Source of the DNA: an uncultured Candidatus Saccharibacteria bacterium
Lineage (GTDB): Bacteria; Patescibacteriota; Minisyncoccia; 2-02-FULL-40-12; GWA2-44-9
Assembly: GCA_964513645.1 (NCBI GenBank)
Contig: CAZENF010000001.1
Location: 71,303-135,302, forward strand
Direction: 5' to 3'
DNA length: 64,000 nucleotides
Position 1 is the stretch's first letter. Each line of letters begins with the position of its first letter. Shown here piece by piece: positions 1,165-60,330 of this stretch. A program made the translations under genes and the position numbers. Below the pieces are notes generated by a model, which saw only the letters and a program-made list of their open reading frames with translations, had not been told where the DNA came from and did no database searches.

Positions 1165-2234
1165 TAATCAAAAAACCTGCTTATCTCCTCCGAAGACGCG
1201 ACCGCCTTTCCCATAATTATACTACGTTCTTTGAACATCTTGGGTGCGCCTTTTATAAACTCGGGGATCTCGAGTAAAACTTTGGGTTCAAAAATAAGCA
1301 GATAACCGAGCATTGAAATTTCCCTTTTGAGGAGATAAGGCAAATCTTTCAGAATATTGATTATATAATCATTTTTAATGATTGTAAAGCGGATATTTTT
1401 CCATTCGAGCTGTCTTTTTCTCAAAGGTATCGCGCGTCGAATAGCCAAGAAGTCGCTTAAATTTTTCTTCAATTTCTTAGTTGTCTGCCGATCATGCCAG
1501 GCAATTACCGAAGGTGCAAAAACCTGTTTCCAGCCGTAAAGCGTCATCCGCCAGGCAAAATCAAGATCATCTCCGTACCAGAAATATTCATTATCTATGA
1601 ACCGGCCATTAACCCTGCAATCATCAATCGCCTCTTTTCTTAAAAACGGAGCAGCGCCTTCAACTCCGAATATTTCTTTCAAATTATCATACTGACCCTT
1701 ATCCTCCTCACCGTGACCGATATTGATCACCCGGCGTGAATGGAATACCTTGAAACCACACGTATCCAAGACATTTGTTAATTGGGTTTTGTCATTTGAT
1801 ATTTCAAACCTATATATTTTAGCCTCGAGAGCACCTATCTTGGCATCTTTCTCCATTATCTCAACCGAGTTTTTAATAAAATCTTTATCCAAAATGACGT
1901 CTACGGCCATAGTTAGGACGTATTTTCCGGACGAATGTTTCAAGAGCTCCTCCTGTCCCGGCCACATACCCAGATTTTGCCTGCCTTCGATAAAATTAAA
2001 AGCGGCAAAATTGGAATCTCCAATCTCCCCGGCCTCGCCAAAGGCTTGCCGAGGGCGGGCCAATTTCCAATTTCCAATTAAAGACTTTGTCTTGTCCGTT
2101 GAACCGTTGTCCAGAATATTTAACTCGATAAATTCATGCGGATATGTCTGGGCCAAAATCCCAGCCAAACAATGGCGAATGTATTTTTCACCGTTAAGGA
2201 CAACGAGGTTAATTGATACTTTACCGTCGGACAT
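1164..2234 (-). CDS. family 2 glycosyltransferase
   Basis: N-terminal GT-A motif (VSINLVVLNGEKYIRHCLAGILAQTYP ... DNGSTD), 356 aa. It contains a TTCCAAT heptamer repeat. Confidence 0.8.
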   Translation of the reverse strand: MSDGKVSINLVVLNGEKYIRHCLAGILAQTYPHEFIELNILDNGSTDKTKSLIGNWKLARPRQAFGEAGEIGDSNFAAFNFIEGRQNLGMWPGQEELLKHSSGKYVLTMAVDVILDKDFIKNSVEIMEKDAKIGALEAKIYRFEISNDKTQLTNVLDTCGFKVFHSRRVINIGHGEEDKGQYDNLKEIFGVEGAAPFLRKEAIDDCRVNGRFIDNEYFWYGDDLDFAWRMTLYGWKQVFAPSVIAWHDRQTTKKLKKNLSDFLAIRRAIPLRKRQLEWKNIRFTIIKNDYIINILKDLPYLLKREISMLGYLLIFEPKVLLEIPEFIKGAPKMFKERSIIMGKAVASSEEISRFFD

Positions 2235-3786
2235 TATTTTTATCTTTATTCACAAAAATCAAAGAGATAACCGTTACAAAAAGTAAAAATGAACGCTCGT
2301 CAAAAAGCGCCACATCCGTCAGACAATAAAGCAAAACCCAGGGAACAAAAATTAATATCCCGGCAAAATATACAGATAGAAAAGAGTCTTTTTCTGTTGT
2401 GAAATTTATATATGCTTTTTTCAATAATAACCACAAAAACCATAAAGAAACGATAAGCGCCAGGATTCCCATCTCGGCCGCAATGTGCAGATAAATATTA
2501 TGCGCAGATGAGCCGGCTTTGGATAGTTCCAGATTCTGATTCAGAACAACAGGAAAATTTCCGATTCCAACTCCGAGAACAGGATGTTTGATAATAGATT
2601 TTAGACTCGCTTTCCATATCAGTACCCTTTGGGCATTCGAGGTCTCACCGAAATCAACAATTGATTTGATGCGGTTGCCCAACAGTCCCCAGTCTCCTTT
2701 TGAAAGCAAGAATTGAGGAGAAATAAATATCGGATAAGCAACCGCAAAAAGCATGAAGAAAATTATCAGATATAAGGAAACATATTTAAAAATATTTTTA
2801 TGTCGGATATCGGTTTTACATTCATTCAAAAGATAAATTATCCCGCCGATAAAAAGCAGAACTCCCGCGCCAGCGGCCCAAATTCCTCTGGTTCCGGTCA
2901 GAATTGCGATCAGAAATATCGCCGGTATCCAGAGAACGAACATCTTTGCCCGGATCTTTATCATTTTTTTCAGATTATCGGCCGATTCAGCGACCTTATA
3001 CAATGACATCGCAAAAACCGAGACCAATCCCAACAATATGAATTGCGGGAAAGAATGTGAATCCGGGAATAGAGAAAAAACTCTCAACGATAACTGTGGA
3101 CCGTAATACGCCAGCCAGGTATTTCCGACATGAACTGCAATATAACACCATTCCGAACCAAATTGTCTGCACTGTATCCCCTCACCCCACAAACGCATGA
3201 ACTGATAAACATCAATAAAATAAGTTGAAATAACCTGGATAAAACCGACTATGGTTACGACAATAACCGGAATGGAAATGCTCCGGATAAGTCTTTTGGT
3301 AAATTCGATATTTTTAGCCGACAGATCGTGAACAACAAATCCTATCAGAGAAAGATTCACAAAATAAATTATTCTTTTTAGCGCAGTTCCTTTATCACCG
3401 GCAACTATAACAGACATTATGGCGAGCAAAAGCAATGCCATCAGGACAACCGAGGGTTTTTTGTAATTAATACCTTTGAACCATTTTAAAATACTTGAAA
3501 CCCGGTAATTAAGGCCTCCGGCAAAAAACCATTTTAAAAATATAACGACTGATAAAATTCTCCAGATATTAAAATTATCAAAATTAGCGGTTAGAGGCAG
3601 GGCCAGAAAGAGTGGGATGGACATCACAAAAAATACCGTTCCATCTTCAAGCGAAGCCGATAAGGCATACATCGCCAAAGCAGCTCCCAAATACAAAGCT
3701 GCCATCCGCGGCAAAACACCGGTTATTATCAAAGCAAATAAAACCAACTCCGCACAAAAAAATAAATTAAAAAATTTAAATTTCAT
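2221..3786 (-). CDS. O-antigen ligase / Wzy-like polytopic membrane protein
   Basis: 521 aa, more than 10 predicted TM helices, in a glycan cluster. The start overlaps the upstream GT2 stop. Confidence 0.5.
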   Translation of the reverse strand: MKFKFFNLFFCAELVLFALIITGVLPRMAALYLGAALAMYALSASLEDGTVFFVMSIPLFLALPLTANFDNFNIWRILSVVIFLKWFFAGGLNYRVSSILKWFKGINYKKPSVVLMALLLLAIMSVIVAGDKGTALKRIIYFVNLSLIGFVVHDLSAKNIEFTKRLIRSISIPVIVVTIVGFIQVISTYFIDVYQFMRLWGEGIQCRQFGSEWCYIAVHVGNTWLAYYGPQLSLRVFSLFPDSHSFPQFILLGLVSVFAMSLYKVAESADNLKKMIKIRAKMFVLWIPAIFLIAILTGTRGIWAAGAGVLLFIGGIIYLLNECKTDIRHKNIFKYVSLYLIIFFMLFAVAYPIFISPQFLLSKGDWGLLGNRIKSIVDFGETSNAQRVLIWKASLKSIIKHPVLGVGIGNFPVVLNQNLELSKAGSSAHNIYLHIAAEMGILALIVSLWFLWLLLKKAYINFTTEKDSFLSVYFAGILIFVPWVLLYCLTDVALFDERSFLLFVTVISLIFVNKDKNNVRR

Positions 3787-4303
3787 TATCGATATGTATC
3801 AGGGCCGTCCGGATAGCTTCTTTAGTATATTCCTTCCGGTTCAGGCGTCCTTTGGTCATTATTCCCACCAGACCTTCGGCTGAACCGACTTTTTTATTTT
3901 TGGTCAGTCCGGCTTTAAAAGCGGCGTCATTCATATCCAACCCCTCATCAAGCATATATTGAGTCACTTTTTTAGGCGCTTCCCAGGCCGAGGAAAGGCC
4001 CAAATGAAATTCTTTTCCGTCAAAAATAGCACAAACACAAACATCCATGAATCCGGTCTTGGTCCGAGGAACCTGCATTAGGCCCGACTCTATTCCAAAA
4101 CTATATGAACAGTCTTTAAAGGCATTTTTGGCTCTGCCCATTGCCCCGCTAATAGTTTCATCAAGAGACTTTGGCTGTTCCGCCACTCCGGAAGAAGCGT
4201 CCATACCAGTAACTTCGGCATCCCTAAGATGCTGATAATCTTTCAGTATTTCTTTTAGGGCATCGATTTTTATTAAATTTGTCGAACCTACGTTAATTTT
4301 CAT
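3776..4303 (-). CDS. inosine/xanthosine triphosphatase-like protein (YjjX/DUF84 family)
   Basis: Motifs VGSTNLIKIDAL, SGVAEQP and ETISGAMGRAKNA align with the non-canonical purine NTP phosphatase YjjX. Confidence 0.55.
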   Translation of the reverse strand: MKINVGSTNLIKIDALKEILKDYQHLRDAEVTGMDASSGVAEQPKSLDETISGAMGRAKNAFKDCSYSFGIESGLMQVPRTKTGFMDVCVCAIFDGKEFHLGLSSAWEAPKKVTQYMLDEGLDMNDAAFKAGLTKNKKVGSAEGLVGIMTKGRLNRKEYTKEAIRTALIHIDNEI

Positions 4304-5403
4304 TTGAGTTCTTTAAAAAATTTCCCGGCAAAATTATGCCAGCTGTATTTTCGGGCAAATTCGGGTCCGGATGTTTTTATTTTTTCAATCTTATCTTTGT
4401 CGGTCAAAGTTATTCGGATTGCGTCGGCAATATTTTTCACTTCCGCATCTTTGCTGAAAAAAGCGTATTCGCCGAATATCTCCCGGCTCAAGTCGTTATC
4501 AATTACCAGCGGGGGGGCGCCGAAGGATAAAGCTTCAACCGGAGGTAAGCCGAACGCTTCATTGTCAGATACATACACCAGGGCCTTAGCGCCGGCATAA
4601 AGTTTATCAATTTCCTGTCTTTTTTCAATATAGTCATAATGAATAATACGTTCACTGCCTAACTTTTGGTTCATTTCTTTTATTAACTTTTCAATCACTA
4701 ACGGACTGTATTTATCCCGGCCAACCATTATTAATTTGAGTCCAGGAAATTCAGAAGCGATCTTTTCGAAGGCAAGTATCGTTTCTCTGGCATGCCTCCG
4801 GGGAAACATTTGACCGACATATAAAATATAATTTCCAATTTCCAATCTCCAATTTCCAATTTTTGAAACAGATTCTCCAACCCCCAGATAAGAAACAAAA
4901 ATTCTTGATGGATCAATCCCATATAATTTTACCAGCTCCTTTTTTGAAAATTCCGAAATGGCAAGGATCTTAGTAGATTTAATTGCCGCCCAGTTGGTAA
5001 ATAAGCGGTATGCCAACCGATAACGGAATGGAAGATTTCCGCTTTTATATTCATAAAAAACATCGTTGGTTAGCATTACCACCGATTTTCTCAAATATAG
5101 AGGCGGGAGCATATAAGCCGGGAAGAACATCCAGTCCAAACCGTCTGCCATCGCACGTAATGGCATCAGAATGTGATAAAAAATATTAAAAGAAGGGAAA
5201 CCAAGCACCCGCTTAACAAAAATAGAGTCTTTCAGAACCTCGTCGTCGGGTATATTTTTTTTGAAATACAAATAAAATTTATATTTTCCACGCCATTCGG
5301 GGTTTGCGGCATACTCTTTGAGTAAATTTAAAGTTACCGCGCCGACTCCCCAGCGTGACTTTGGGTCTTCTAAATTTTCACATTCAATTCCTATCTTATA
5401 CAT
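4300..5403 (-). CDS. family 1 (GT4-type) glycosyltransferase
   Basis: C-terminal GT-B signature EAFGLPPVEALSFGAPPLV. It contains a TTCCAAT heptamer repeat encoding IGNWRLEIGN. Confidence 0.8.
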   Translation of the reverse strand: MYKIGIECENLEDPKSRWGVGAVTLNLLKEYAANPEWRGKYKFYLYFKKNIPDDEVLKDSIFVKRVLGFPSFNIFYHILMPLRAMADGLDWMFFPAYMLPPLYLRKSVVMLTNDVFYEYKSGNLPFRYRLAYRLFTNWAAIKSTKILAISEFSKKELVKLYGIDPSRIFVSYLGVGESVSKIGNWRLEIGNYILYVGQMFPRRHARETILAFEKIASEFPGLKLIMVGRDKYSPLVIEKLIKEMNQKLGSERIIHYDYIEKRQEIDKLYAGAKALVYVSDNEAFGLPPVEALSFGAPPLVIDNDLSREIFGEYAFFSKDAEVKNIADAIRITLTDKDKIEKIKTSGPEFARKYSWHNFAGKFFKELK

Positions 5404-6250
5404 TTATTTTGCCCATTCTATTTTTATAAAAATCAACGACTCCGGACAATATCGCGAATGATTCTTCTCTTTTATAATTTAAGATTATTTTTACAAACTG
5501 TTTTTTTATTATCCAAAAACTCCACGGCCAGAGAAATAGTTTGATATGCCATGGCCCATTCTTCCGGTTGAAATACAAAGCATTCCGGAAATGATAACGA
5601 AGAAGCAGAGGACTTCCTAATTTTTTCGTCGTTCCAGAAACCTCATGATAAGCTTTAGGTTTTTCCAAAAAATCAACCGATATTCCTTTGTTTTTTGCTC
5701 TCAAGCAAAAATCAGCATCTTCAAAATATAAAAAATATTTTTCATCCAAAAAACCTATTTTCTCAAAAACATCCTTATGGATAAGCATCCCGCCTCCAAT
5801 AGCATAGCCGTCGACCGGACCCGGATTATAAATATGCCCGAGAGTTGGTTTTAGCCACTCTATTTTACCGGCATAGGCAGTATGTGGCCCTTCATCCAAA
5901 GGTATGCCAAGAATGCCTGTTTTTGAGCCCAAAACTGACCTTAGAGAAGAGATGAAATCCTTTTCTACCCAAGCATCATTATTCAACAATAAAACCCATT
6001 CCGAGCCATTTTTTAAGGCTTCGCGAATCCCGGTATTGTTGCCGCCAGAAAATCCAAAATTTTCTTTATTCTCTACCAAAACTGCTCCAGAACCGATATT
6101 TTTCTTTAAATTATCGAGGTCATTTTTCTCGGAGGAATTATCTACAACAATAACTGAAAAATCATTATCTGTCTGTGCTTTCAATGTTCTTAAAAGATTC
6201 AGAGTACTTTCAGAACCGTTATAATTGATGGTTATGATCGTTAATCGCAT
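5396..6250 (-). CDS. family 2 glycosyltransferase
   Basis: MRLTIITINYNGSESTLNLLRTLKAQTDNDFSVIVVDNSS, a GT2 N-terminal fold. Confidence 0.8.
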   Translation of the reverse strand: MRLTIITINYNGSESTLNLLRTLKAQTDNDFSVIVVDNSSEKNDLDNLKKNIGSGAVLVENKENFGFSGGNNTGIREALKNGSEWVLLLNNDAWVEKDFISSLRSVLGSKTGILGIPLDEGPHTAYAGKIEWLKPTLGHIYNPGPVDGYAIGGGMLIHKDVFEKIGFLDEKYFLYFEDADFCLRAKNKGISVDFLEKPKAYHEVSGTTKKLGSPLLLRYHFRNALYFNRKNGPWHIKLFLWPWSFWIIKKQFVKIILNYKREESFAILSGVVDFYKNRMGKINV

Positions 6251-6281
6251 TATTAAATTTTATTAAAAAAACCGGGCAGAT

Positions 6282-6527
6282 TCAATTGGCCCGGTTAGCT
6301 TTATTTTTTGCCAATTCAGGATATTTTTTAATGTATGCGTCGACCAGTCTTTTTATTGATTCCTTGTCATTATCCTCGACAACTAACATCAATTTTTCTG
6401 ATTGAGGCGGCTCTTCTAACTCAAGCCCGGAATCAGGACAATCCCAAATTTCATTAAAAAATTCCTTACCATTACGTGTTCTAAGGAACAAGCGGCACCG
6501 ATGAACGGTCATATGGACCCAAAACAA
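6282..6527 (-). CDS. hypothetical small protein
   Basis: 81-aa ORF followed by a minus-strand rho-independent terminator hairpin (aaccgggc...gcccggtt plus a U-run at about 6258-6292). Confidence 0.3.
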   Translation of the reverse strand: MFWVHMTVHRCRLFLRTRNGKEFFNEIWDCPDSGLELEEPPQSEKLMLVVEDNDKESIKRLVDAYIKKYPELAKNKANRAN

Positions 6528-15971: not shown

Positions 15972-17942
15972 TCAATTCCCGTAATCTACGGTCAATTTTA
16001 TCCGGCTGCGGTCGGTCGGAACCTTAAAAACCCAGAAAGGCGATAGAATAACCCTGGCCGAAGTTACTCCGTCAACTCCTTTTATATATTCCTTGATGCC
16101 ATCTGAATTTTTACCCATCAGATCCGAAATTATTTTTTCCTGATCTACTGTCTGATAAACATTACCTTTAACCGCAACCGTAAAAGTCATTACCTTCTGA
16201 TCTTTATCAAAATTAACATTATCAAATTTTATATCCAGTTTATCTGGAAATACTGTCACTTGGTTTGCATTTTGAATTATCCTTGTTATGAGATCGTCAA
16301 AATCAGATTGTTTGAATCCGACAGTGTTAAGCGTAGCCGTGCCAGAAACAGTAAAGGTATCAGCCGCTTGATCTACCTGTGCGCTTGAAACAATATCGCC
16401 CATTTCCGGTGCGACATTGTCCAGGATCTTTAACTGGGCCGCCTGGCCTTTAAGGTCATTCTTAATATCTTCTGCCAGTTTTTTCTGAACAGCATCTTTG
16501 GCTTTTGCATAATCATCCTGGGTAACTACCTTGGCTTTTCCGATTATACCGCCGACCATCGCTTTATCTGCCTGGCCGTAAATTTTACCGTACCGGTCCA
16601 TGTCCCCTTTTTCTTTAAAAGCCGGCATCGTAAATTTCCCGGGACTTATATTATACGTATCACCCGCCTTATCGGCTATAACTTCAACGTCGATAGTTCC
16701 CGGTATTATCTTTCCGTTGACGACCTTTGTTCCGGGAACGGTAACGTTCTTTAATGTCCTGAATATCAGGCCATTGGAATTTTCGAAACGTGTCGTGGCA
16801 ATAAGTATCTGGTATGTGGTTCCGTACTCATTGTAGATTGTGATTGTGCCGCGCGCTTTTTGTGCTACATCTTTCTCGCCGGTCGAAGGAAAAGTCTGGT
16901 CTTCTTTTTTACTTAGAGAAAAAAGTTGGCCGGGTATTCTTTTCAAAGCCGGGTCGACGGAAGAATAAGAATCCGAAACGCTTATTTTTATTCCGGAAAA
17001 ATCAACCGGAGAAACTTTGGGTTTAATTATCAATTCTGCCTTGCCCATTGAAACATAAAGCACGAAGCCAAAAATTATAACCACCCCTAATCCGTAAAGA
17101 TAGAGCGTTTTTTTGGATAAATTAGAAACCCATTTACCGACCGGAAATCCTGGCAACTTGTAACCTTCGGTCGGACCGGCATATATCTTTTGAGGAACTT
17201 CGCGCCCCAGAGGTTCTTGAGGAGTCGGCATAGCACGCACGGGAGGAGACTCACGTCTTGATTGCCAAACATTTTGTATCTCATTCATTGCCGACCTTTC
17301 AAGCATTTTGCTTTTTACCGACTGCGAGCGCCTGAACTCGCGTCTAACTTCAACATCAAACGGTTGTTCTGCAGTCTCATCAACCTTAACACTCACTGGG
17401 TCTTCTTTTTCAGGCTGGATAATATCGTCCATTGATTTTGAAACCTTAGCCGCCGCAAGCACTGCGCTTTCTTCGGGATCAAGTTCCGGCGTTTCAGACG
17501 AACCATAATCAACTTCATCATAAGAAGGGCTTTTAAAACCTTCAGAATCATCTTCGTTCCGCATCTCATCTCTGGCAGTATTTGTTTCTTGATATTGGTC
17601 GTCCTTATCTTCTTCCTCGACATCTTCCTCGACATCTTCCTCGACATCTTCCTCGACATCTTCATCGGCTTCTTCTTCATCATCACTCTCACTGGTTAGA
17701 ATTCCAAAATTATAACTCGAAGCCATGGCATTTATCTCCGGATTTTCGCTTAAGATAAGGACGGCCTTATCTAATTCTTCGGAAACATCGGCTAAAAGAG
17801 AGAAATTATCTTCTTTGGCAAAAGCTTTCGGTCTTTTGGGCAAAACAAAAATGACCTCATCGGCCTGAGCTTTCTTGAAAATCTCGAGTATATCACTGAA
17901 CTTATCGTCCCGGAGGACGTTGATTATCTTTGTCCCCGCCAT
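15972..17942 (-). CDS. hypothetical single-pass membrane protein with acidic EEDV repeat region
   Basis: 656 aa. A conserved-looking N-terminal domain of about 85 aa, an acidic low-complexity region (EEDVEEDVEEDVEEDVEE), one TM helix (LYLYGLGVVIIFGFVLYVSM) and a C-terminal extracytoplasmic domain of about 340 aa. No family recognised. It sits where secY-adk-map normally precede infA. Confidence 0.5.
   Translation of the reverse strand: MAGTKIINVLRDDKFSDILEIFKKAQADEVIFVLPKRPKAFAKEDNFSLLADVSEELDKAVLILSENPEINAMASSYNFGILTSESDDEEEADEDVEEDVEEDVEEDVEEEDKDDQYQETNTARDEMRNEDDSEGFKSPSYDEVDYGSSETPELDPEESAVLAAAKVSKSMDDIIQPEKEDPVSVKVDETAEQPFDVEVRREFRRSQSVKSKMLERSAMNEIQNVWQSRRESPPVRAMPTPQEPLGREVPQKIYAGPTEGYKLPGFPVGKWVSNLSKKTLYLYGLGVVIIFGFVLYVSMGKAELIIKPKVSPVDFSGIKISVSDSYSSVDPALKRIPGQLFSLSKKEDQTFPSTGEKDVAQKARGTITIYNEYGTTYQILIATTRFENSNGLIFRTLKNVTVPGTKVVNGKIIPGTIDVEVIADKAGDTYNISPGKFTMPAFKEKGDMDRYGKIYGQADKAMVGGIIGKAKVVTQDDYAKAKDAVQKKLAEDIKNDLKGQAAQLKILDNVAPEMGDIVSSAQVDQAADTFTVSGTATLNTVGFKQSDFDDLITRIIQNANQVTVFPDKLDIKFDNVNFDKDQKVMTFTVAVKGNVYQTVDQEKIISDLMGKNSDGIKEYIKGVDGVTSARVILSPFWVFKVPTDRSRIKLTVDYGN
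17609..17668. repeat. 12-nt tandem repeat (catcttcctcga) x about 4.5 inside the CDS
   Basis: Seen directly. It encodes the (EEDV)n tract, and the antisense ORF MSRKMSRK is an artefact of this repeat. Confidence 0.8.
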
Positions 17943-38688: not shown

Positions 38689-38701
38689 GTTTGATTTAAG
38701 C

Positions 38702-38836
38702 AAATGGCTATATTCTTTCGCTACCGTTCGCTCGCCCAACGAGCTCGCTCACTGCCTTTCGTCGGTCGCTCTCTCGCTTCGCTCGAACCATGCCCGCTTC
38801 CCTCCTCGAAGCGCGCGAGAAGAACATAGCTATTTG
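38702..38836 (-). promoter_or_regulatory. GC-rich structured leader element, copy A of a two-copy family, immediately 5' of atpA
   Basis: Conserved core shared with 48281-48431: ttcgctaccgttcg ... cactgccttcgtcggtcgctc ... gaaccatgcccgcttccctcctcRaagcgcgcgagaag. It is flanked by copy-specific terminal inverted repeats of 13-15 nt that covary between the two copies. Confidence 0.5.
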
Positions 38837-38847
38837 CTTAACTAATT

Positions 38848-46682: not shown

Positions 46683-46706
46683 GGGGCAACCGATGTTGCC
46701 CCTTTT
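46683..46706. terminator. bidirectional terminator hairpin
   Basis: ggggcaac-cgat-gttgcccc flanked by T-runs. Confidence 0.5.
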
Positions 46707-46716
46707 CTCGGGATTT

Positions 46717-46869
46717 TTAGCCCCGGAAGTAGTTACCGAGCTTGCCCTTGTGCTTGTGGCGGGTGTTGTGGCGCCGCGCCGCCTGCCGTGCCGCATGGCC
46801 ATGGCCCTGCTTCGCACTGCCATGGCGGTGAAGCTCCCGCTTCAATCTGTTCTCTCTCTTCCTGGCCAT
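46717..46869 (-). CDS. hypothetical highly basic 50-aa protein, GC-rich
   Basis: MARKRENRLKRELHRHGSAKQGHGHAARQAARRHNTRHKHKGKLGNYFRG, with RBS GGAGG 7 nt upstream. GC3 is far above genome background. Confidence 0.4.
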   Translation of the reverse strand: MARKRENRLKRELHRHGSAKQGHGHAARQAARRHNTRHKHKGKLGNYFRG

Positions 46870-46906
46870 TGGGCTGCCTCCTAAACAAAGTATTAACAAT
46901 TTCTTT

Positions 46907-48286
46907 CTAAATTATATCACTATTTTTAATATGTGTCAATAATCCGGCCGAGAACCAGAACACTATCCTCCCCTGCTGAAGGGTCATTAAAAAATGGTCG
47001 AAAAAGCCAATGAACAAAACAGAGATGAAAAAAAACAGAACCGAAAGCTGGTAAGATTTACTAAGCTTTGTCTTCAGGATAAAATCTTTTAACAAAAAAT
47101 ATAAAAATAAAATGAATGCCGTCAGACCTAAAAGACCGGTTTCTGAATAGATGAGCAGGTATATGTTATGGACCGGCTGATAAGCATAATTAGGAAGCAT
47201 CGGCTGTTTTTCCATCAGCCAGTTCACGAAATTACCAGCACCTACGCCAAGAAAATTAATTCCCCCTCCAGTCATTAAAGCCACTTTGTTGTAAAAACCC
47301 CTTAGTTCTACGGCCTGATCATCCGGGTTTATAGTTGAACGGGTTATTATAGCTTTGAAATAAATTGAACCGAAAAGGAGAATAACCACAAAACCCGCAA
47401 TAAGAATGGCTTTTATACGTTGCCGGCTTTCATCGGTCCCAAATATTATTCGGTAATGTTTTCTTGATAAAATTATTATGCCACGAATACAAAAAGTGAT
47501 GAACCAGATAAAAATAACGACCCTCGAAAAGGTCGCAAAAAACCCAAAAAGGATAACGCCGTAGGACAAAATAAAAAATTTATCCCAGTTGTCTGATAAG
47601 GGGCTGTGCTCTACATGAATCTTCGAATATAAATAAACAAAATAAAACGCAAAAATGGATAAGAACAGAGAACCAGCCAGAACGTTCGGATGCGGAGTTG
47701 TGCCATAAGCACGTATGAATTTATCCCCGTTTTGAAGATAGAATGAAGCCACCCCGGCAAGTTCTTTGTTCAGAACGCTTTCACCCAGATATTTAAGCCC
47801 CAGGCTTGATTGTTTGAACAACTGGGTCATTGCGATCAAGGCTTGGAAAACTCCTCCGGATAATATTGCCAAGAATGTTTTATATAAATCGAATTTGGCT
47901 AAAGCGTATCTCGAGATATAAAAATAAAAAACAACAAATTCAACTAATTTAAACCATTGATACCAACTAACCGTAATGTTGGTCGAATTTTTTATAGAAA
48001 TAAGAGAGATGGTCAAAAAAATAACAAGCCAGGGGTCAGACGTTTTAAGCTTTGATTTTAAAAATTCAAACTTGTTCGGAGGTTGGAATTTAGGATTTGT
48101 GTTTTTTTGATAAGAGTTTAAAAACCAAAAAATAAATAAAACGGCCAGTAATATATCCGTCAGATAAACACTGACCGATAGCCATTCATTAAAACGCCAA
48201 TCCGAATACCATAAGATCTTCCTGGTCTCAAAAGGAATACAAAACAAAAAAACATAAAAAAGACATTTTTCGAGTTTCAGAAACAT
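46907..48286 (-). CDS. O-antigen ligase / Wzy-like polytopic membrane protein
   Basis: 459 aa, more than 10 TM helices and a large periplasmic loop. Confidence 0.5.
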   Translation of the reverse strand: MFLKLEKCLFYVFLFCIPFETRKILWYSDWRFNEWLSVSVYLTDILLAVLFIFWFLNSYQKNTNPKFQPPNKFEFLKSKLKTSDPWLVIFLTISLISIKNSTNITVSWYQWFKLVEFVVFYFYISRYALAKFDLYKTFLAILSGGVFQALIAMTQLFKQSSLGLKYLGESVLNKELAGVASFYLQNGDKFIRAYGTTPHPNVLAGSLFLSIFAFYFVYLYSKIHVEHSPLSDNWDKFFILSYGVILFGFFATFSRVVIFIWFITFCIRGIIILSRKHYRIIFGTDESRQRIKAILIAGFVVILLFGSIYFKAIITRSTINPDDQAVELRGFYNKVALMTGGGINFLGVGAGNFVNWLMEKQPMLPNYAYQPVHNIYLLIYSETGLLGLTAFILFLYFLLKDFILKTKLSKSYQLSVLFFFISVLFIGFFDHFLMTLQQGRIVFWFSAGLLTHIKNSDII

Positions 48287-48431
48287 GGCTTTAACCTTTC
48301 GCTACCGTTCGTATTCCCAGCGAGAATCCTCACTGCCTTCGTCGGTCGCTCCCTTGTCCTTCGGACAAGAACCATGCCCGCTTCCCTCCTCAAAGCGCGC
48401 GAGAAGGTTAAAGCCATGTTTCTTAATTATC
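48281..48431 (-). promoter_or_regulatory. GC-rich structured leader element, copy B, overlapping the start codon of the Wzy-like gene
   Basis: Same conserved core as 38702-38836. It has perfect 15-nt terminal inverted repeats, aaacatggctttaacc and ggttaaagccatgtt, that include the ATG at 48284-48286. It also has an internal C(UUCG)G tetraloop hairpin. Confidence 0.5.
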
Positions 48432-48470
48432 TTCGCTAAATTATATCTTAATTATTAAGGTTTTGTTGTA

Positions 48471-48499
48471 TTGACAAATTAATAATTTAATAGTATAAT
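48471..48499 (+). promoter_or_regulatory. consensus sigma70 promoter (TTGACA, 17-nt spacer, TATAAT)
   Basis: Perfect hexamers read directly. It drives a GC-rich 5' UTR of about 170 nt. Confidence 0.6.
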
Positions 48500-48506
48500 A
48501 CGGGGT

Positions 48507-48677
48507 AGTACGTTGGAATCCTGCTCATAGGACAGCCGGTACGGGAAAGCGGTAGTTTGTTTAAGACAAAATAAAAAAGTTGAAAAACAATCTCCCGTAG
48601 ACCGAATCCAGGTTGAACACAGCCCTCGCCGCAATCTCGCGGCCGGCAATCTTCTGCTAAGGCAGAGGAGGTGTCCC
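48507..48677 (+). promoter_or_regulatory. structured GC-rich 5' UTR, a candidate cis-regulatory RNA
   Basis: Long-range pairing of tacggga at 48528-48534 with tcccgta at 48596-48602. Repeated gaatcc motifs. RBS GGAGG before the ATG at 48678. Confidence 0.3.
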
Positions 48678-49097
48678 ATGAGCTTGACCCTGTTCCGCGC
48701 TGATGTGATCGAGGTTCTTGTGAAAATGGAACTGGCACCCTACCAGTTCCACCTCACGGGTTCCCGGTTCTTCGGCCGCGCTACCCCTGGTTCGGATTGG
48801 GACTTCTTCGTGGAATTCAATCCGGACCTGGAGGGCTGGCTGATCTGTAACGGATTCTACCAAGAATCTTCTACAGACTACGCTTCAGCAGACATCTCTG
48901 AGGTTTGGAAGCATGTATCGTTCCCGATACATGTCCAAGTCATCAGCGATGCCCGCTTGAAAGCGGACGTCCAGAATCACCTGCAGAACTATTCGCACAC
49001 GCTCTATGGTGTGCCGAAAGAGTACCGCAAGGCGATCTGGAACCTTGCCTTTGACCTGTTTCAAACAGGCCAAAGACAAGCCGCCGAGCTTTTCTAA
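48678..49097 (+). CDS. small nucleotidyltransferase-fold protein (Pol-beta superfamily motif GS...SDxD)
   Basis: GSRFFGRATPGSDWDFFVEF matches hG[GS]x9-13Dh[DE]h. 139 aa. GC-rich codon usage. Followed by a long terminator hairpin (agctccgcac...gtgcggagct plus T-run) at 49098-49150. Confidence 0.45.
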   Translation: MSLTLFRADVIEVLVKMELAPYQFHLTGSRFFGRATPGSDWDFFVEFNPDLEGWLICNGFYQESSTDYASADISEVWKHVSFPIHVQVISDARLKADVQNHLQNYSHTLYGVPKEYRKAIWNLAFDLFQTGQRQAAELF

Positions 49098-49190
49098 AGC
49101 TCCGCACAGAGAAGTTTCACACTTCGTCTGGTGCGGAGCTTCTTTGTTTTAATCAACACTGAAAATATGTATACCAGATTCACGCAGAAT

Positions 49191-50336
49191 TTATCTGACC
49201 CAGAACGTATATCCTACCCCGCCGAGAAATATTAACGCAAGAATATAAAGGAGCCAGACCGGAACCGACAAACTATATTCCGGCAGACGGTCTCCATGAG
49301 ATTTGGCTTTTATAAAAAGCAAAATTATAATGAATGCTTCGAGGCCTATCGCCACGCCTCCGGCTAAACCGATAACATCAATAAAACTCCTCAATCCGCC
49401 TAAGAACAAAAGAAATGGGGGCAAAATAACCAGAGCCCAGGATAATTTTTTATTAAAACCGTAATCAAGTTTAAATATCTGGAAAAGGCCGGTACCGAGC
49501 ATGAGATAAGAGGTACTGACCGCCAAAACACCGAACAATGAACTCAAAAAAATTATTTTTCCGCCGATAAAATCTACCAGCCCGGTGATTGCATCCGGCG
49601 ATGTCCCCTGTCCCGATACTCCAAAAACAGTAAAAGCAAACAGGAAATATAGAAGCCCGACCAATAAAACCCCGGTAAAAATAGATCTCTTAAACCGTCT
49701 TTCATCGCCACCTAAAAGCTGTCTCTGGATAGGGATGGCCGGCAAACCTCCGAAAGCAAAAAGAAAAACACCGTAAGGAAAGAACCACATGCTTGGGTTT
49801 GTGCCGATAAAATTAGAAAAATTTATTTTAGAAAAACCAAATCCGAAAATAAGAAAAATTACGGCGATAAAAAGTATGGATATCCCCAGTTCAACCCAGG
49901 CAACAGTCCGCAATCCGAAAAATACCAGCAAAGAAGCGGCGACAAAGAACCAAATGCTCAAGCTTTGAGCTGAAGCATAGGTAAAAGGAGCTAGGACGGT
50001 CGTCAAAAATTCGCCCGAAATTATTATATAAGCTAAGAGAGCGGCATAAGTATTGAGTAGGATAGAGAAAAATATCACCCGTTTCCAGGTATTTCCCAGG
50101 TAAAGTTCAGTATAACCCACTAGTTGGTGGGACTGATGGGTTCGCAAAATTATCTCACCGTAAATGAGATTCAGAAGAAGAGTTACCGCTCCGATCGCTA
50201 CCAAAAATAAAAGACCGATACCAAAACCGGACTTTGCAAAAGCAAAAGGTATGCCGAATATCCCGACACCAACCATGGTCCCGATCAGGATAGCCGTGGC
50301 ATGGAGAAATTTCTTGTCTTTAAGAAATGAAGCCAC
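49191..50336 (-). CDS. HAAAP-family amino acid permease (TnaB/Mtr/TyrP-like)
   Basis: N-terminus LHATAILIGTMVGVGIFGIPFAFAKSGF aligns with the TyrP/Mtr TM1. 11 TM helices. A GTG start is proposed. The track ORF runs to 50549 but overlaps mgtC. Confidence 0.6.
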   Translation of the reverse strand: MASFLKDKKFLHATAILIGTMVGVGIFGIPFAFAKSGFGIGLLFLVAIGAVTLLLNLIYGEIILRTHQSHQLVGYTELYLGNTWKRVIFFSILLNTYAALLAYIIISGEFLTTVLAPFTYASAQSLSIWFFVAASLLVFFGLRTVAWVELGISILFIAVIFLIFGFGFSKINFSNFIGTNPSMWFFPYGVFLFAFGGLPAIPIQRQLLGGDERRFKRSIFTGVLLVGLLYFLFAFTVFGVSGQGTSPDAITGLVDFIGGKIIFLSSLFGVLAVSTSYLMLGTGLFQIFKLDYGFNKKLSWALVILPPFLLFLGGLRSFIDVIGLAGGVAIGLEAFIIILLFIKAKSHGDRLPEYSLSVPVWLLYILALIFLGGVGYTFWVR

Positions 50337-59699: not shown

Positions 59700-60330
59700 C
59701 GGTAAAGTTCTTTATATGCAATAAGCGTTGTGGGTTCAGAAAGGGCCTACTAAGAAGCAATTAGCTCTTTACATACAGGCCCTTTCCGAGCCCCTAGCAC
59801 GCAAGTAAATTAAGGCGGCGGCGAAGCAGTAGATGCACGCGGCTGCCACCTCCGCTGGGGGCTCGCTCAGTGATGCGGCCAAGGGCCCTTCACCTCTATG
59901 TCGTATGGGATACGTGTTTATCCCCCAAGCTCGTCCGCCGCCCTAAATAGGCGGACAAAGGTAATTTCCCCCGGCAAATGTTCGGGGCCAAAAAGGAGCT
60001 TTTGCATGAGAGGTATAAGCCCCTTGATGGCAGGGAGCCATCGCGGATAGCTGGGATCCGAACACCCCAGACAAGGGAGGGCTCAAGCCCTCCCACCTTC
60101 ATCCATAGTCTCAAAAATTTTGAGGATATAGACGAGGGTTGAGAGATGTGTGCGCATAGACGTAAAGTCGGCGACCGAAAGTACGCCCGAGAACGCTTTG
60201 CCCCTTCTCTCCCCTCACCTTTCCTGATCCCGGCAAGTGACCGGGGTAGGATAATCAAATACATCGGTAAGGCACACAAGGAGCAACGATGCGCTCCTTC
60301 GGTGGAACGCCGGGTTGAACACCCGGCTTT
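59700..60330 (+). ncRNA. candidate large structured non-coding RNA of about 630 nt, GC-rich and flanked by promoter and terminator
   Basis: No credible ORF. Many perfect helices: aaagggcct/aggcccttt (9 bp), gtccgcc/ggcggac, gggagggc/gccctccc (8 bp), cccgg/ccggg. Also ggcggcgg at 59814 pairing with ccgccgcc at 59936. It ends in an intrinsic terminator ccgggt-tgaaca-acccgg plus T5 at 60311-60333. No downstream plus-strand gene. Confidence 0.45.

Follow-up and report, generated by a model that had tools for sequence, protein, structure and literature searches.

A self-contained nucleotidyltransferase cassette with a structured transcript in a Saccharibacteria genome and its relatives in phage-like contigs

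The 64,000-nt stretch of DNA analysed here (the window; positions 71,303 to 135,302 of contig CAZENF010000001.1 of an uncultured Candidatus Saccharibacteria bacterium) carries on its plus strand a compact single-gene cassette encoding a small nucleotidyltransferase (NTase). The cassette begins with a sigma-70-type consensus promoter (48471-48499, 12 of 12 positions in the promoter scan), composed of TTGACA (48471-48476), a 17-nt spacer and TATAAT (48494-48499), and continues with a predicted 5' leader of about 172 nt (48506-48677), the start of which is placed about 7 nt past the -10 box. The Shine-Dalgarno sequence AGGAGG (48666-48671) lies 6 nt 5' of the ATG of an open reading frame (ORF; 48678-49097), which contains GSRFFGRATPGSDWDFFV and encodes a 139-aa stand-alone NTase of the Pol-beta fold, as indicated by Pfam, an AlphaFold2 (AF2) model and the family signature. 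The intrinsic terminator (49097-49150) consists of a hairpin (49097-49141), whose perfect 11-bp outer stem (49097-49107/49131-49141) is part of a longer hairpin and is followed by CTTTGTTTT, and a U-tract (49142-49150). All components of the self-contained module proposed in a first-pass annotation of this DNA, namely the promoter, leader, 139-aa ORF and terminator, were found, and their identity and anatomy, taken jointly, are highly probable. The cassette contains a single ORF and is monocistronic between promoter and terminator, its starts and ends being predicted from sequence; the flanking genes are housekeeping genes on the opposite strand. The surroundings of the cassette showed neither target-site duplications, terminal inverted repeats nor flanking repeats, direct or inverted, and no recombinase; within the cassette, no antisense promoter or antitoxin gene was found. 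Perfect TTGACA-17-TATAAT promoters are rare, as the first-pass annotation had stated: two sites were found in the 64-kb window versus 0.02 expected from dinucleotide-preserving shuffles. The only other such site, at 46939-46911 on the minus strand, drives a further self-contained unit, likewise small and GC-rich (46700-46939, minus strand); located just upstream of a DksA-like gene, this unit has a GGAGG, an ORF for a very basic product of 49 aa (MARKRENRLKRELHRHGSAKQGHGHAARQAARRHNTRHKHKGKLGNYFRG) and a terminator formed by a hairpin and a T-run.

The minimal Pol-beta NTase motif noticed earlier in the protein survived profile search. Pfam NTP_transf_2 (PF01909) was matched with 23.8 bits against a gathering score of 21 (E 6e-5), and among 129 family members 32 matched NTP_transf_2 and 17 matched Polbeta. 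The superfamily motif, hG[GS] with [DE]h[DE]h 9-13 residues further on, is present as L26-T-G28-S29 ... D40-W-D42-F, and the key residues of the protein are G28-S29, D40-x-D42, H85-V-Q87, K95, Q99, K114 and W121. Among 153 family representatives, T27, G28, S29 and D42 are invariant, D40 is found in 152, and S39, D40, Q87, K95, Q99 and W121 are each at least 97% conserved. The family signature in the same set comprises F24, L26-T-G-S-R30, F32-G, S39-D-W-D-F-F44, L55, G59-F60, Y68 and D70 in its first part, and [H/D]85-V-Q87, V89, D/N91, K95, Q99, K114 and W121 in its second. The AF2 model, based on a 15-sequence alignment (predicted local distance difference test score 91.5, predicted template modelling score 0.83), has the predicted order H-E-H-E-H-E-E-E (H, helix; E, strand) plus C-terminal helices, which includes the alpha-beta-alpha-beta-alpha-beta core. 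The top Foldseek matches in PDB are all Pol-beta NTases (TUT1, Cid1, Tailor, GrpB and a chain of the MenAT1 complex), and a structure search of BFVD returned weak matches (template modelling (TM) score 0.55-0.60) to uncharacterised small phage proteins. At the level of sequence, the NTase is linked to a characterised protein only through the active-site motif that it shares with MNT antitoxins: PDB 7ae2_B, an 'MNT antitoxin', was matched with E 0.029 over this motif alone (LFGSRATGNINANSDWDFAV versus LTGSRFFG....SDWDFFV), and NCBIfam MntA (NF047752) gave 16.5 bits versus a cut-off of 60 (E 0.006), with four other family members scoring 12-16 bits. The NCBIfam scan at E<=1 revealed nothing beyond this weak match, and no resistance-NTase (ANT/Lnu) model; PADLOC-DB gave a motif-level match alone (candidate PDC-S09, E 0.006, residues 23-54), and PHROGs motif-level or sub-threshold matches at best. 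No PolyA_pol-type, RlaP or DUF1814/AbiEii Pfam match was found in the protein or its 129 relatives. The phmmer comparison with PDB sequences yielded matches to OmpG, which were rejected as spurious. The protein is thus a genuine NTase of the Pol-beta fold; its family is distinct and is neither named nor described in Pfam, NCBIfam, PHROGs, PADLOC or the literature found, which supplied only general background on HEPN-MNT systems and on phage Pol-beta NTases (RlaP and the CCA-adding enzyme).

The word-indexed search returned only 15 relatives among 5.8 billion proteins; a profile of these 15, run against 1.84 billion cluster representatives, recovered 1,845 at E<=1e-3 and 1,325 at E<=1e-10. Nearly all profile matches are single-domain proteins of 120-180 aa, and all family members are unnamed or 'hypothetical' and lack a precomputed Pfam domain. 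The closest genome match is a Candidatus Saccharibacteria metagenome-assembled genome. Most relatives are found in viral or phage-like contigs (18 IMG/VR loci and 36 metagenome loci), the phage-like metagenome contigs with the NTase being rich in small unannotated ORFs, and neither the window protein nor a phage-type relative had a tblastn match in 50,697 GenBank phage records. The all-against-all comparison of neighbouring ORFs at 45 phage-like loci revealed no conserved partner protein, and the chromosomal cassettes described below likewise lack one. The sole recurrent neighbours of phage-type NTases are tRNA genes, present in 18 of the 45 non-redundant phage-like loci and encoded on the NTase strand in 31 cases out of 31. 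A tRNA gene lies within 150 nt of 11 of 52 NTase genes, whereas the remaining ORFs at these loci have one that close in 29 of 452 cases (odds ratio 3.9, p 0.001). These tRNAs are mainly Leu-UAA, Ile-UAU and Lys-UUU, and none has an encoded 3' CCA. The 144-kb viral contig L017 (IMGVR_UViG_3300033149_003715) contains at 1651-6485 seven tandem NTase paralogs, one of them with degenerate GS and DxD motifs, and two interleaved tRNA-Lys(UUU) genes. Four paralogs of another small protein family (MKIYYKVV...) are located beside this array. Phage tRNA gene arrays are now viewed as counter-measures against tRNA-cleaving defences, and the substrate of these unannotated enzymes, about 1,800 clusters in all, could bring to light a new step of the phage tRNA arms race.

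In the subfamily closest to the window protein (42-57% identity) the NTase is a lone gene between cellular genes. The autonomous promoter-gene-terminator cassette recurs in at least five contexts across genomes of the candidate phyla radiation (CPR) type, each copy having its own near-consensus promoter and its own terminator where sequence was available. The window-type context, with a membrane protein on one side and permease-MgtC-Lon on the other, includes the loci L001 and L002 and the contig P0002, where permease (Aa_trans), MgtC and Lon genes are arranged as in the window; the promoter of L001 is a perfect TTGACA-17-TATAAT. Equally perfect promoters precede the cassette of L009, located between holB and mreB, and that of L034. 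The cassette of L010 adjoins an HhH-GPD gene and has the promoter TTGACA-16-TATAGT; L012 and L070 share TTGACA-17-TAATAT, and the gene before them looks like a putative gyrA C-terminus. Finally, the cassette of L071 and L072 is inserted between secY and adk in the ribosomal-protein (spc) operon and has the promoter TTGACA-17-TATATT; in L071 (2367-3197) it has its own promoter and terminator and is followed by about 290 nt of AT-rich spacer. All eight cassettes compared have a hairpin and a U-run directly 3' of the stop codon, and 6 of the 11 consensus pairs of the terminator show compensatory changes. Five cassettes share nearly the same terminator hairpin sequence (it is nearly identical in L012, L033, L034 and L070), their proteins being just about 45% identical. 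In L033, a second, unrelated NTase-like ORF of 213 aa (1635-2276, GGSRSKG...SDWDL) is found 1.1 kb downstream of the cassette. Several independent assemblies, those of L001-L003, L010 and P0002, end 130-350 nt upstream of the NTase gene, which points to a repeat, or to a problem of coverage, immediately 5' of the cassette there. The anatomy of the cassette is that of a phage 'moron', yet the cassette is chromosomal and lies outside prophages. Of the horizontal acquisition proposed in the first-pass annotation, the foreign (phage) ancestry is supported, because the relatives are mostly in viral contigs and the cassette occurs in unrelated chromosomal contexts; the GC-rich codons are better explained by selection for RNA structure across the transcript than by a recent acquisition, as described below.

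The predicted leader folds with a minimum free energy (MFE) of -65.6 kcal/mol (z -2.87 versus shuffles), and the long-range pairing reported earlier for a structured 5' untranslated region (UTR) of about 170 nt was recovered between 48523-48534 and 48672-48683. Independent MFE folds of three leaders (window, L001 and L010) gave the same architecture. In helix P1, the 5' part of the leader is predicted to pair with the GUGUC-AUG-codon 2-4 region; in the window, the 5' strand GCTCATAGGACA (48523-48534) pairs with 48672-48683, which covers the AUG, so that the start codon is fully paired in this model, and it is partly paired in those of L001 and L010. Within P1, block 1 (CCGGTACGGGAAAG, 48536-48549), identical in the three leaders, forms the 5' strand of P2/P3, and block 2 (GCCGCAATCTCGCGGCCGG, 48628-48646), near-invariant with 18-19 of 19 nt conserved, forms the 3' strand or an alternative local hairpin; the sequence of block 2 common to the three is GCCGCAATCYCGYGGCCGG. 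The two blocks pair around a small A-rich internal loop (block 1 along its whole length in the L001 and L010 folds), with the variable hairpin P4 and its A-rich loop (48555-48591) at the tip. Hairpin P5 (48650-48669) abuts and partly covers the Shine-Dalgarno sequence; a hairpin directly 5' of AGGAGG is also found in L001, L010 and L069, with differing sequences, and the window shares AGGAGGTGTC before the ATG, unchanged, with L001 and L010.

Both blocks are conserved while the proteins of the window, L001 and L010 are only 51-52% identical, and the earlier suggestion of a conserved structured unit holds for the leader in that these blocks are common to all three. The P1 pair G24-C184 of the window corresponds to A22-U190 in L010, matching a synonymous change of codon 2 from AGC to AGU, and in each leader P1 is lengthened by an individual sequence that pairs with the codons of that leader's own gene. 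In P4, the stems are UUGUUU/AAACAA in the window, AUUUGG/CCAAGU in L001 and GUUAGA/UCUAAC in L010, position and pairing being kept. Changes within the blocks are limited to C/U opposite G (G-C to G-U), which is consistent with an RNA on the plus strand. The compensatory evidence from the leader as a whole is suggestive. The Rfam check proposed for the UTR matched no family: Rfam 15 gave no match to the leader, and the interval 48150-49200 searched at E<=10 gave noise alone (E 1.5-9.7). Neither a tRNA gene (ARAGORN) nor an Rfam family at gathering threshold was found anywhere in the window, and the leader was rejected as a tRNA-like or T-box element, both searches being empty. The search for the blocks across all fetched loci recovered only the three known leaders, and block 1 had no match in IMG/VR. 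Seven IMG/VR matches of block 2, all in phage contigs of 60-68% GC without the NTase, were rejected as chance or terminator-like hairpins.

Structure is also predicted throughout the coding RNA. The MFE of the window ORF is -181.9 kcal/mol compared with -127.6±5.7 for dinucleotide shuffles (z -9.5; z -6.5 for the ORF of L001). Against synonymous-codon shuffles, which preserve protein, codon usage and GC content and cost the ORF about 46 kcal/mol of folding energy, z was -8.0 for the window ORF and -3.0 to -9.2 for eight CPR-type cassettes, compared with +0.6 to -3.2 for nine control genes or segments of the window and +0.65 to -5.6 for thirteen phage-type members. Conserved hairpins are predicted on the plus strand of the coding region, e.g., at 48728-48750, 48852-48868, 48905-48938 and 49044-49080. 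RNAalifold, applied to a protein-guided codon alignment of six cassettes, gave 92 consensus pairs, of which 88% of the cells are canonical. Double changes affect 23 of the 92 pairs versus 5-9 when the partners are slid by 1-3 columns, and G-U is seen 59 times versus 20 times for A-C. In the hairpin at 48905-48938, the codons of K-H-x-x pair with those of x-I/V-H-V-Q, and nucleotide-level covariation is seen in the variable residues between them. In the comparison of the window with the syntenic L001, the proportions of nonsynonymous and synonymous differences (pN and pS) are 0.30 and 0.54 for the NTase, compared with 0.17 and 0.75 for the permease and 0.19 and 0.71 for MgtC, and identical codons at conserved residues make up 62% in the NTase versus 45% and 48% in the neighbours. 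Conserved coding structure would push synonymous divergence below that of the neighbouring housekeeping genes. The plus strand is clearly the better-folding one in five of nine cassettes, i.e., strand specificity is partial. Judged from these sequence comparisons, the whole transcript is under selection for a compact, GC-rich, hairpin-dense RNA.

The GC-rich codons and the deviating composition described by the first-pass annotation were borne out when quantified. The GC content of the cassette is 50.1% versus a window mean of 42.0% (z 2.6), and 50 of 6,332 sliding 680-nt windows are as GC-high. The GC content at third codon positions (GC3) of the ORF is 0.66 compared with 0.427±0.046 in 52 long ORFs of the window (z 5.05), exceeding their maximum of 0.52, and an index similar to the codon adaptation index (CAI) falls below the minimum of the same 52 ORFs (z -5.06). 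The NTase gene is GC-rich in every host (0.49-0.59 versus 0.33-0.47 in the flanks), and at the syntenic site it keeps a GC3 of 0.66-0.68 in genomes whose flanking genes are synonymously saturated. Because of the synonymous-shuffle scores, the compensatory changes, the low pS and the GC-richness in every host, the anomaly in GC content and codon usage is a maintained property tied to RNA structure and not simply the scar of a recent transfer. As a caution of wider relevance, GC or codon anomalies need not mean recent horizontal transfer.

The first-pass annotation had joined to the cassette an adjacent element, copy B (48277-48421), directly upstream. This element is indeed GC-rich (54%), but it was rejected as part of the cassette: its core was absent from all 70 loci fetched by then, and because of its absence from all related loci copy B is a mere neighbour and not part of the unit. 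The element, about 140 nt long and GC-rich, occurs twice in the window, copy A (38698-38840) lying between two genes of an apparent ATP synthase operon. Its long closing stem differs in sequence between the copies with complementarity kept, its fold z is -4 to -7 on either strand, and its minus strand carries GGAGG-N8-AUG and a possible basic ORF of 27-32 aa; it has no Rfam match. The GC peak of the window (up to 53.8% in 680-nt windows) is at 59740-60320, about 600 nt without a convincing ORF between two minus-strand cell-wall genes; Rfam searched at E<=1 matched nothing in this region, a possible large structured RNA. Within a coding region at 17587-17682, the 12-nt unit TCTTCCTCGACA is repeated in tandem about six times.

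As a whole, the locus is best explained, with moderate confidence, as an autonomous accessory-gene cassette of phage ancestry fixed in a Saccharibacteria-like (CPR) chromosome. Several other explanations of the enzyme were considered. The first-pass annotation had named a minimal MNT-like antitoxin, i.e., the canonical type VII system in which an MntA-type minimal NTase AMPylates a cognate adjacent HEPN toxin (HepT). The size and fold of the protein are similar to those of MntA, and MNT antitoxins are the only sequence matches outside the family (7ae2_B and NCBIfam MntA, both through the active-site motif alone). However, the MntA score of 16.5 is far under the cut-off of 60, the unit has no second ORF, its flanking genes are housekeeping genes on the opposite strand, neither the 45 phage-like loci nor the CPR cassettes have a conserved neighbour family, and the terminator directly 3' of the stop codon does not fit a two-gene module; no adjacent co-transcribed HEPN gene or HEPN neighbour was found in a search confined to the loci themselves. 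This claim did not stand, and the explanation is very improbable. Small NTP_transf_2-type enzymes include the ANT and Lnu resistance proteins, and Saccharibacteria live on antibiotic-producing Actinobacteria; the protein could accordingly be an antibiotic NTase of the aminoglycoside/lincosamide (ANT) type with the leader as an inducible attenuator, since a strong promoter and a leader hiding the start codon are features of inducible resistance genes. The resistance NTase of the first-pass annotation nevertheless found no counterpart: NCBIfam at E<=1 contains weak MntA alone and no resistance family, no ANT or Lnu structure is among the top 50 Foldseek PDB matches, a leader peptide is not evident, and the bulk of the family resides in phage-like contigs, beside tRNA genes and in tandem arrays, which would be unexpected for drug resistance; this function is improbable. 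The strong predicted transcription and a 5' UTR of about 170 nt pairing with the initiation region, as in hok/tisB-type mRNAs, the association with tRNA genes and a weak fold match to the MenAT1 complex (chain 8an5_B, TM 0.41) would also suit an NTase toxin acting on tRNA 3' ends (MenT/AbiEii-like), silenced by the leader and freed by phage infection or stress. Such a toxin is decidedly unlikely, as the unit has neither an antisense promoter nor an antitoxin gene and the protein no DUF1814/AbiEii Pfam match, short unstructured leaders (L033, L034 and L071) would hardly be tolerable behind a consensus promoter, and an offensive or anti-defence role accounts better than host suicide for the seven intact-looking copies carried by one phage.

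Two further explanations concern the RNA and the origin of the gene. The leader could be a metabolite-binding riboswitch of a new class that controls NTase translation: two invariant blocks pair around an A-rich internal loop within a P1 helix containing the start codon, the distal hairpin is variable with compensatory changes, and no known Rfam family matches. However, all three distinct examples precede the same gene and other cassettes lack the motif, the blocks are found nowhere else in the window, the fetched loci or IMG/VR save for chance matches in GC-rich phages, and a protein-binding (autoregulatory) or processing site fits the data equally well, which makes a riboswitch unlikely. Atypical composition and fast protein evolution (51% identity versus 72-73% for the neighbouring genes) could indicate a recently acquired, decaying foreign gene, whose GC-richness and structure would be functionless by-products. 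Such decay is hardly credible: the same gene occupies a syntenic site with saturated flanks and still has a GC3 of 0.66-0.68, the catalytic residues are intact, synonymous shuffles lose folding energy despite the same composition and codon usage, the hairpins carry compensatory changes, and the promoter, Shine-Dalgarno sequence and terminator are intact and conserved.

Several observations also weigh against the cassette explanation preferred here or parts of it. The usual third catalytic carboxylate (h[DE]h) of the enzyme is not obvious; in the candidate strand I-H85-V-Q87-V, position 85 is occupied by His in 93 of the 153 representatives, by Asp in 49 and by Gln in 9, and the adjoining Q87 is present in 151. 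The Foldseek PDB matches are weak (E about 3e-3, TM 0.4-0.5), and the tRNA linkage may only reflect the role of tRNA arrays as hot spots of phage accessory genes. The lower synonymous divergence (dS) of the NTase could stem from a more recent lateral replacement, and in four of nine cassettes the two strands fold about equally well. The window-type leader is represented by only three distinct sequences, so that the covariation statistics of the leader are weak. Since the other long leaders (L009, L011/L069 and L012/L070) are different and those of L033, L034 and L071 are short, the leader is not an obligatory part of the cassette. Finally, the start site, translational gating and enzyme activity are all predictions.

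Under the explanation of an autonomous cassette of phage ancestry, the promoter would provide strong constitutive transcription, and translation would be gated by the long-range helix P1, which could be opened by a ligand or protein bound to the invariant P2/P3 blocks or by RNA processing. The enzyme would move a nucleotide, probably AMP, onto a macromolecule involved in a tRNA-centred conflict between phage and host: it may neutralise an RNase toxin by modifying it, in the way that MntA acts on HepT, or it may add to or repair the 3' ends of RNA or tRNA. Any assignment of a specific biochemical role is tentative. The hairpin-dense, GC-rich message may be a long-lived or nuclease-resistant mRNA in an AT-rich cell. 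Combining these elements, the cassette can be read as a phage counter-defence NTase domesticated by CPR bacteria as a free-standing 'immunity cassette' with an RNase-resistant message and a leader lock, a combination that we consider doubtful. Such an NTase would disarm a tRNA-targeting RNase by nucleotidylation, or re-extend damaged tRNA 3' ends, and its almost fully paired, GC-rich message would survive a single-strand-specific RNase and be translated only once the leader lock opens. If this is true, selection on mRNA architecture visibly shapes the codon choice and some of the amino-acid choices of an enzyme. Moreover, the leader may represent a new cis-regulatory RNA of the Saccharibacteria/CPR, a poorly explored group, and the consensus promoters ahead of it could serve as genetic parts. 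While the fold and the class of chemistry are known, the libraries searched and the literature found contain no description of the family, its tRNA-array habitat, its domestication as a free-standing cassette in CPR genomes or the conserved structure that extends from the leader through the ORF to the terminator.

Compared with known systems, the NTase resembles MNT antitoxins in being a single-domain Pol-beta NTase of about 140 aa with nearly the same motif, GSR-x-x-G-x5-SDWDF-x-V. It differs from them in having no partner and being monocistronic with its own promoter and terminator, in the signature of the rest of the protein (Y68, [H/D]85-V-Q87, K95, Q99, K114 and W121), and in the phage-borne, tRNA-linked habitat of its family. 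Unlike the MenT/AbiEii toxins (DUF1814), it has no Pfam match to that family and no adjacent antitoxin gene in the window. In CCA-adding enzymes, a head domain is accompanied by neck, body and tail domains that select the nucleotide and bind the tRNA. With these enzymes and with RlaP, phage RNA-repair or RNA-end Pol-beta NTases reviewed for jumbo phages (PMC7824862), the family shares phage-encoded, tRNA-linked occurrence, here adjoining phage tRNA genes without encoded CCA, and the best PDB fold matches of the window NTase, weak as they are (TM 0.4-0.5), are template-independent RNA 3'-end transferases. However, the window NTase is much smaller (139 aa), has no neck, body, tail or PAP-associated RNA-binding domain, no RNA ligase or kinase-phosphatase neighbour, and no PolyA_pol or RlaP Pfam match.

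At the level of the transcript, the type I toxin-antitoxin mRNAs hok, tisB and zorO have long 5' UTRs that occlude initiation, and their products are small membrane peptides. The cassette is similar in its 5' UTR of about 170 nt, the 5' part of which pairs with the initiation region, and in its predicted constitutive transcription; it differs in encoding a 139-aa soluble enzyme, in that no antisense RNA gene was detected, and in that the structure spans the whole ORF. Phage morons are autonomous promoter-gene-terminator units of atypical composition, and the cassette is like them in its own promoter and terminator, its atypical composition, its insertion between unrelated genes and its connection to the phage gene pool; the same anatomy is repeated in L001, L009, L010, L034 and L071. 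Unlike a moron, the cassette resides in chromosomes outside recognisable prophages (beside permease/MgtC/Lon, between holB and mreB, and even in the secY-adk operon), and its composition is upheld by selection on RNA structure rather than being the scar of a transfer.

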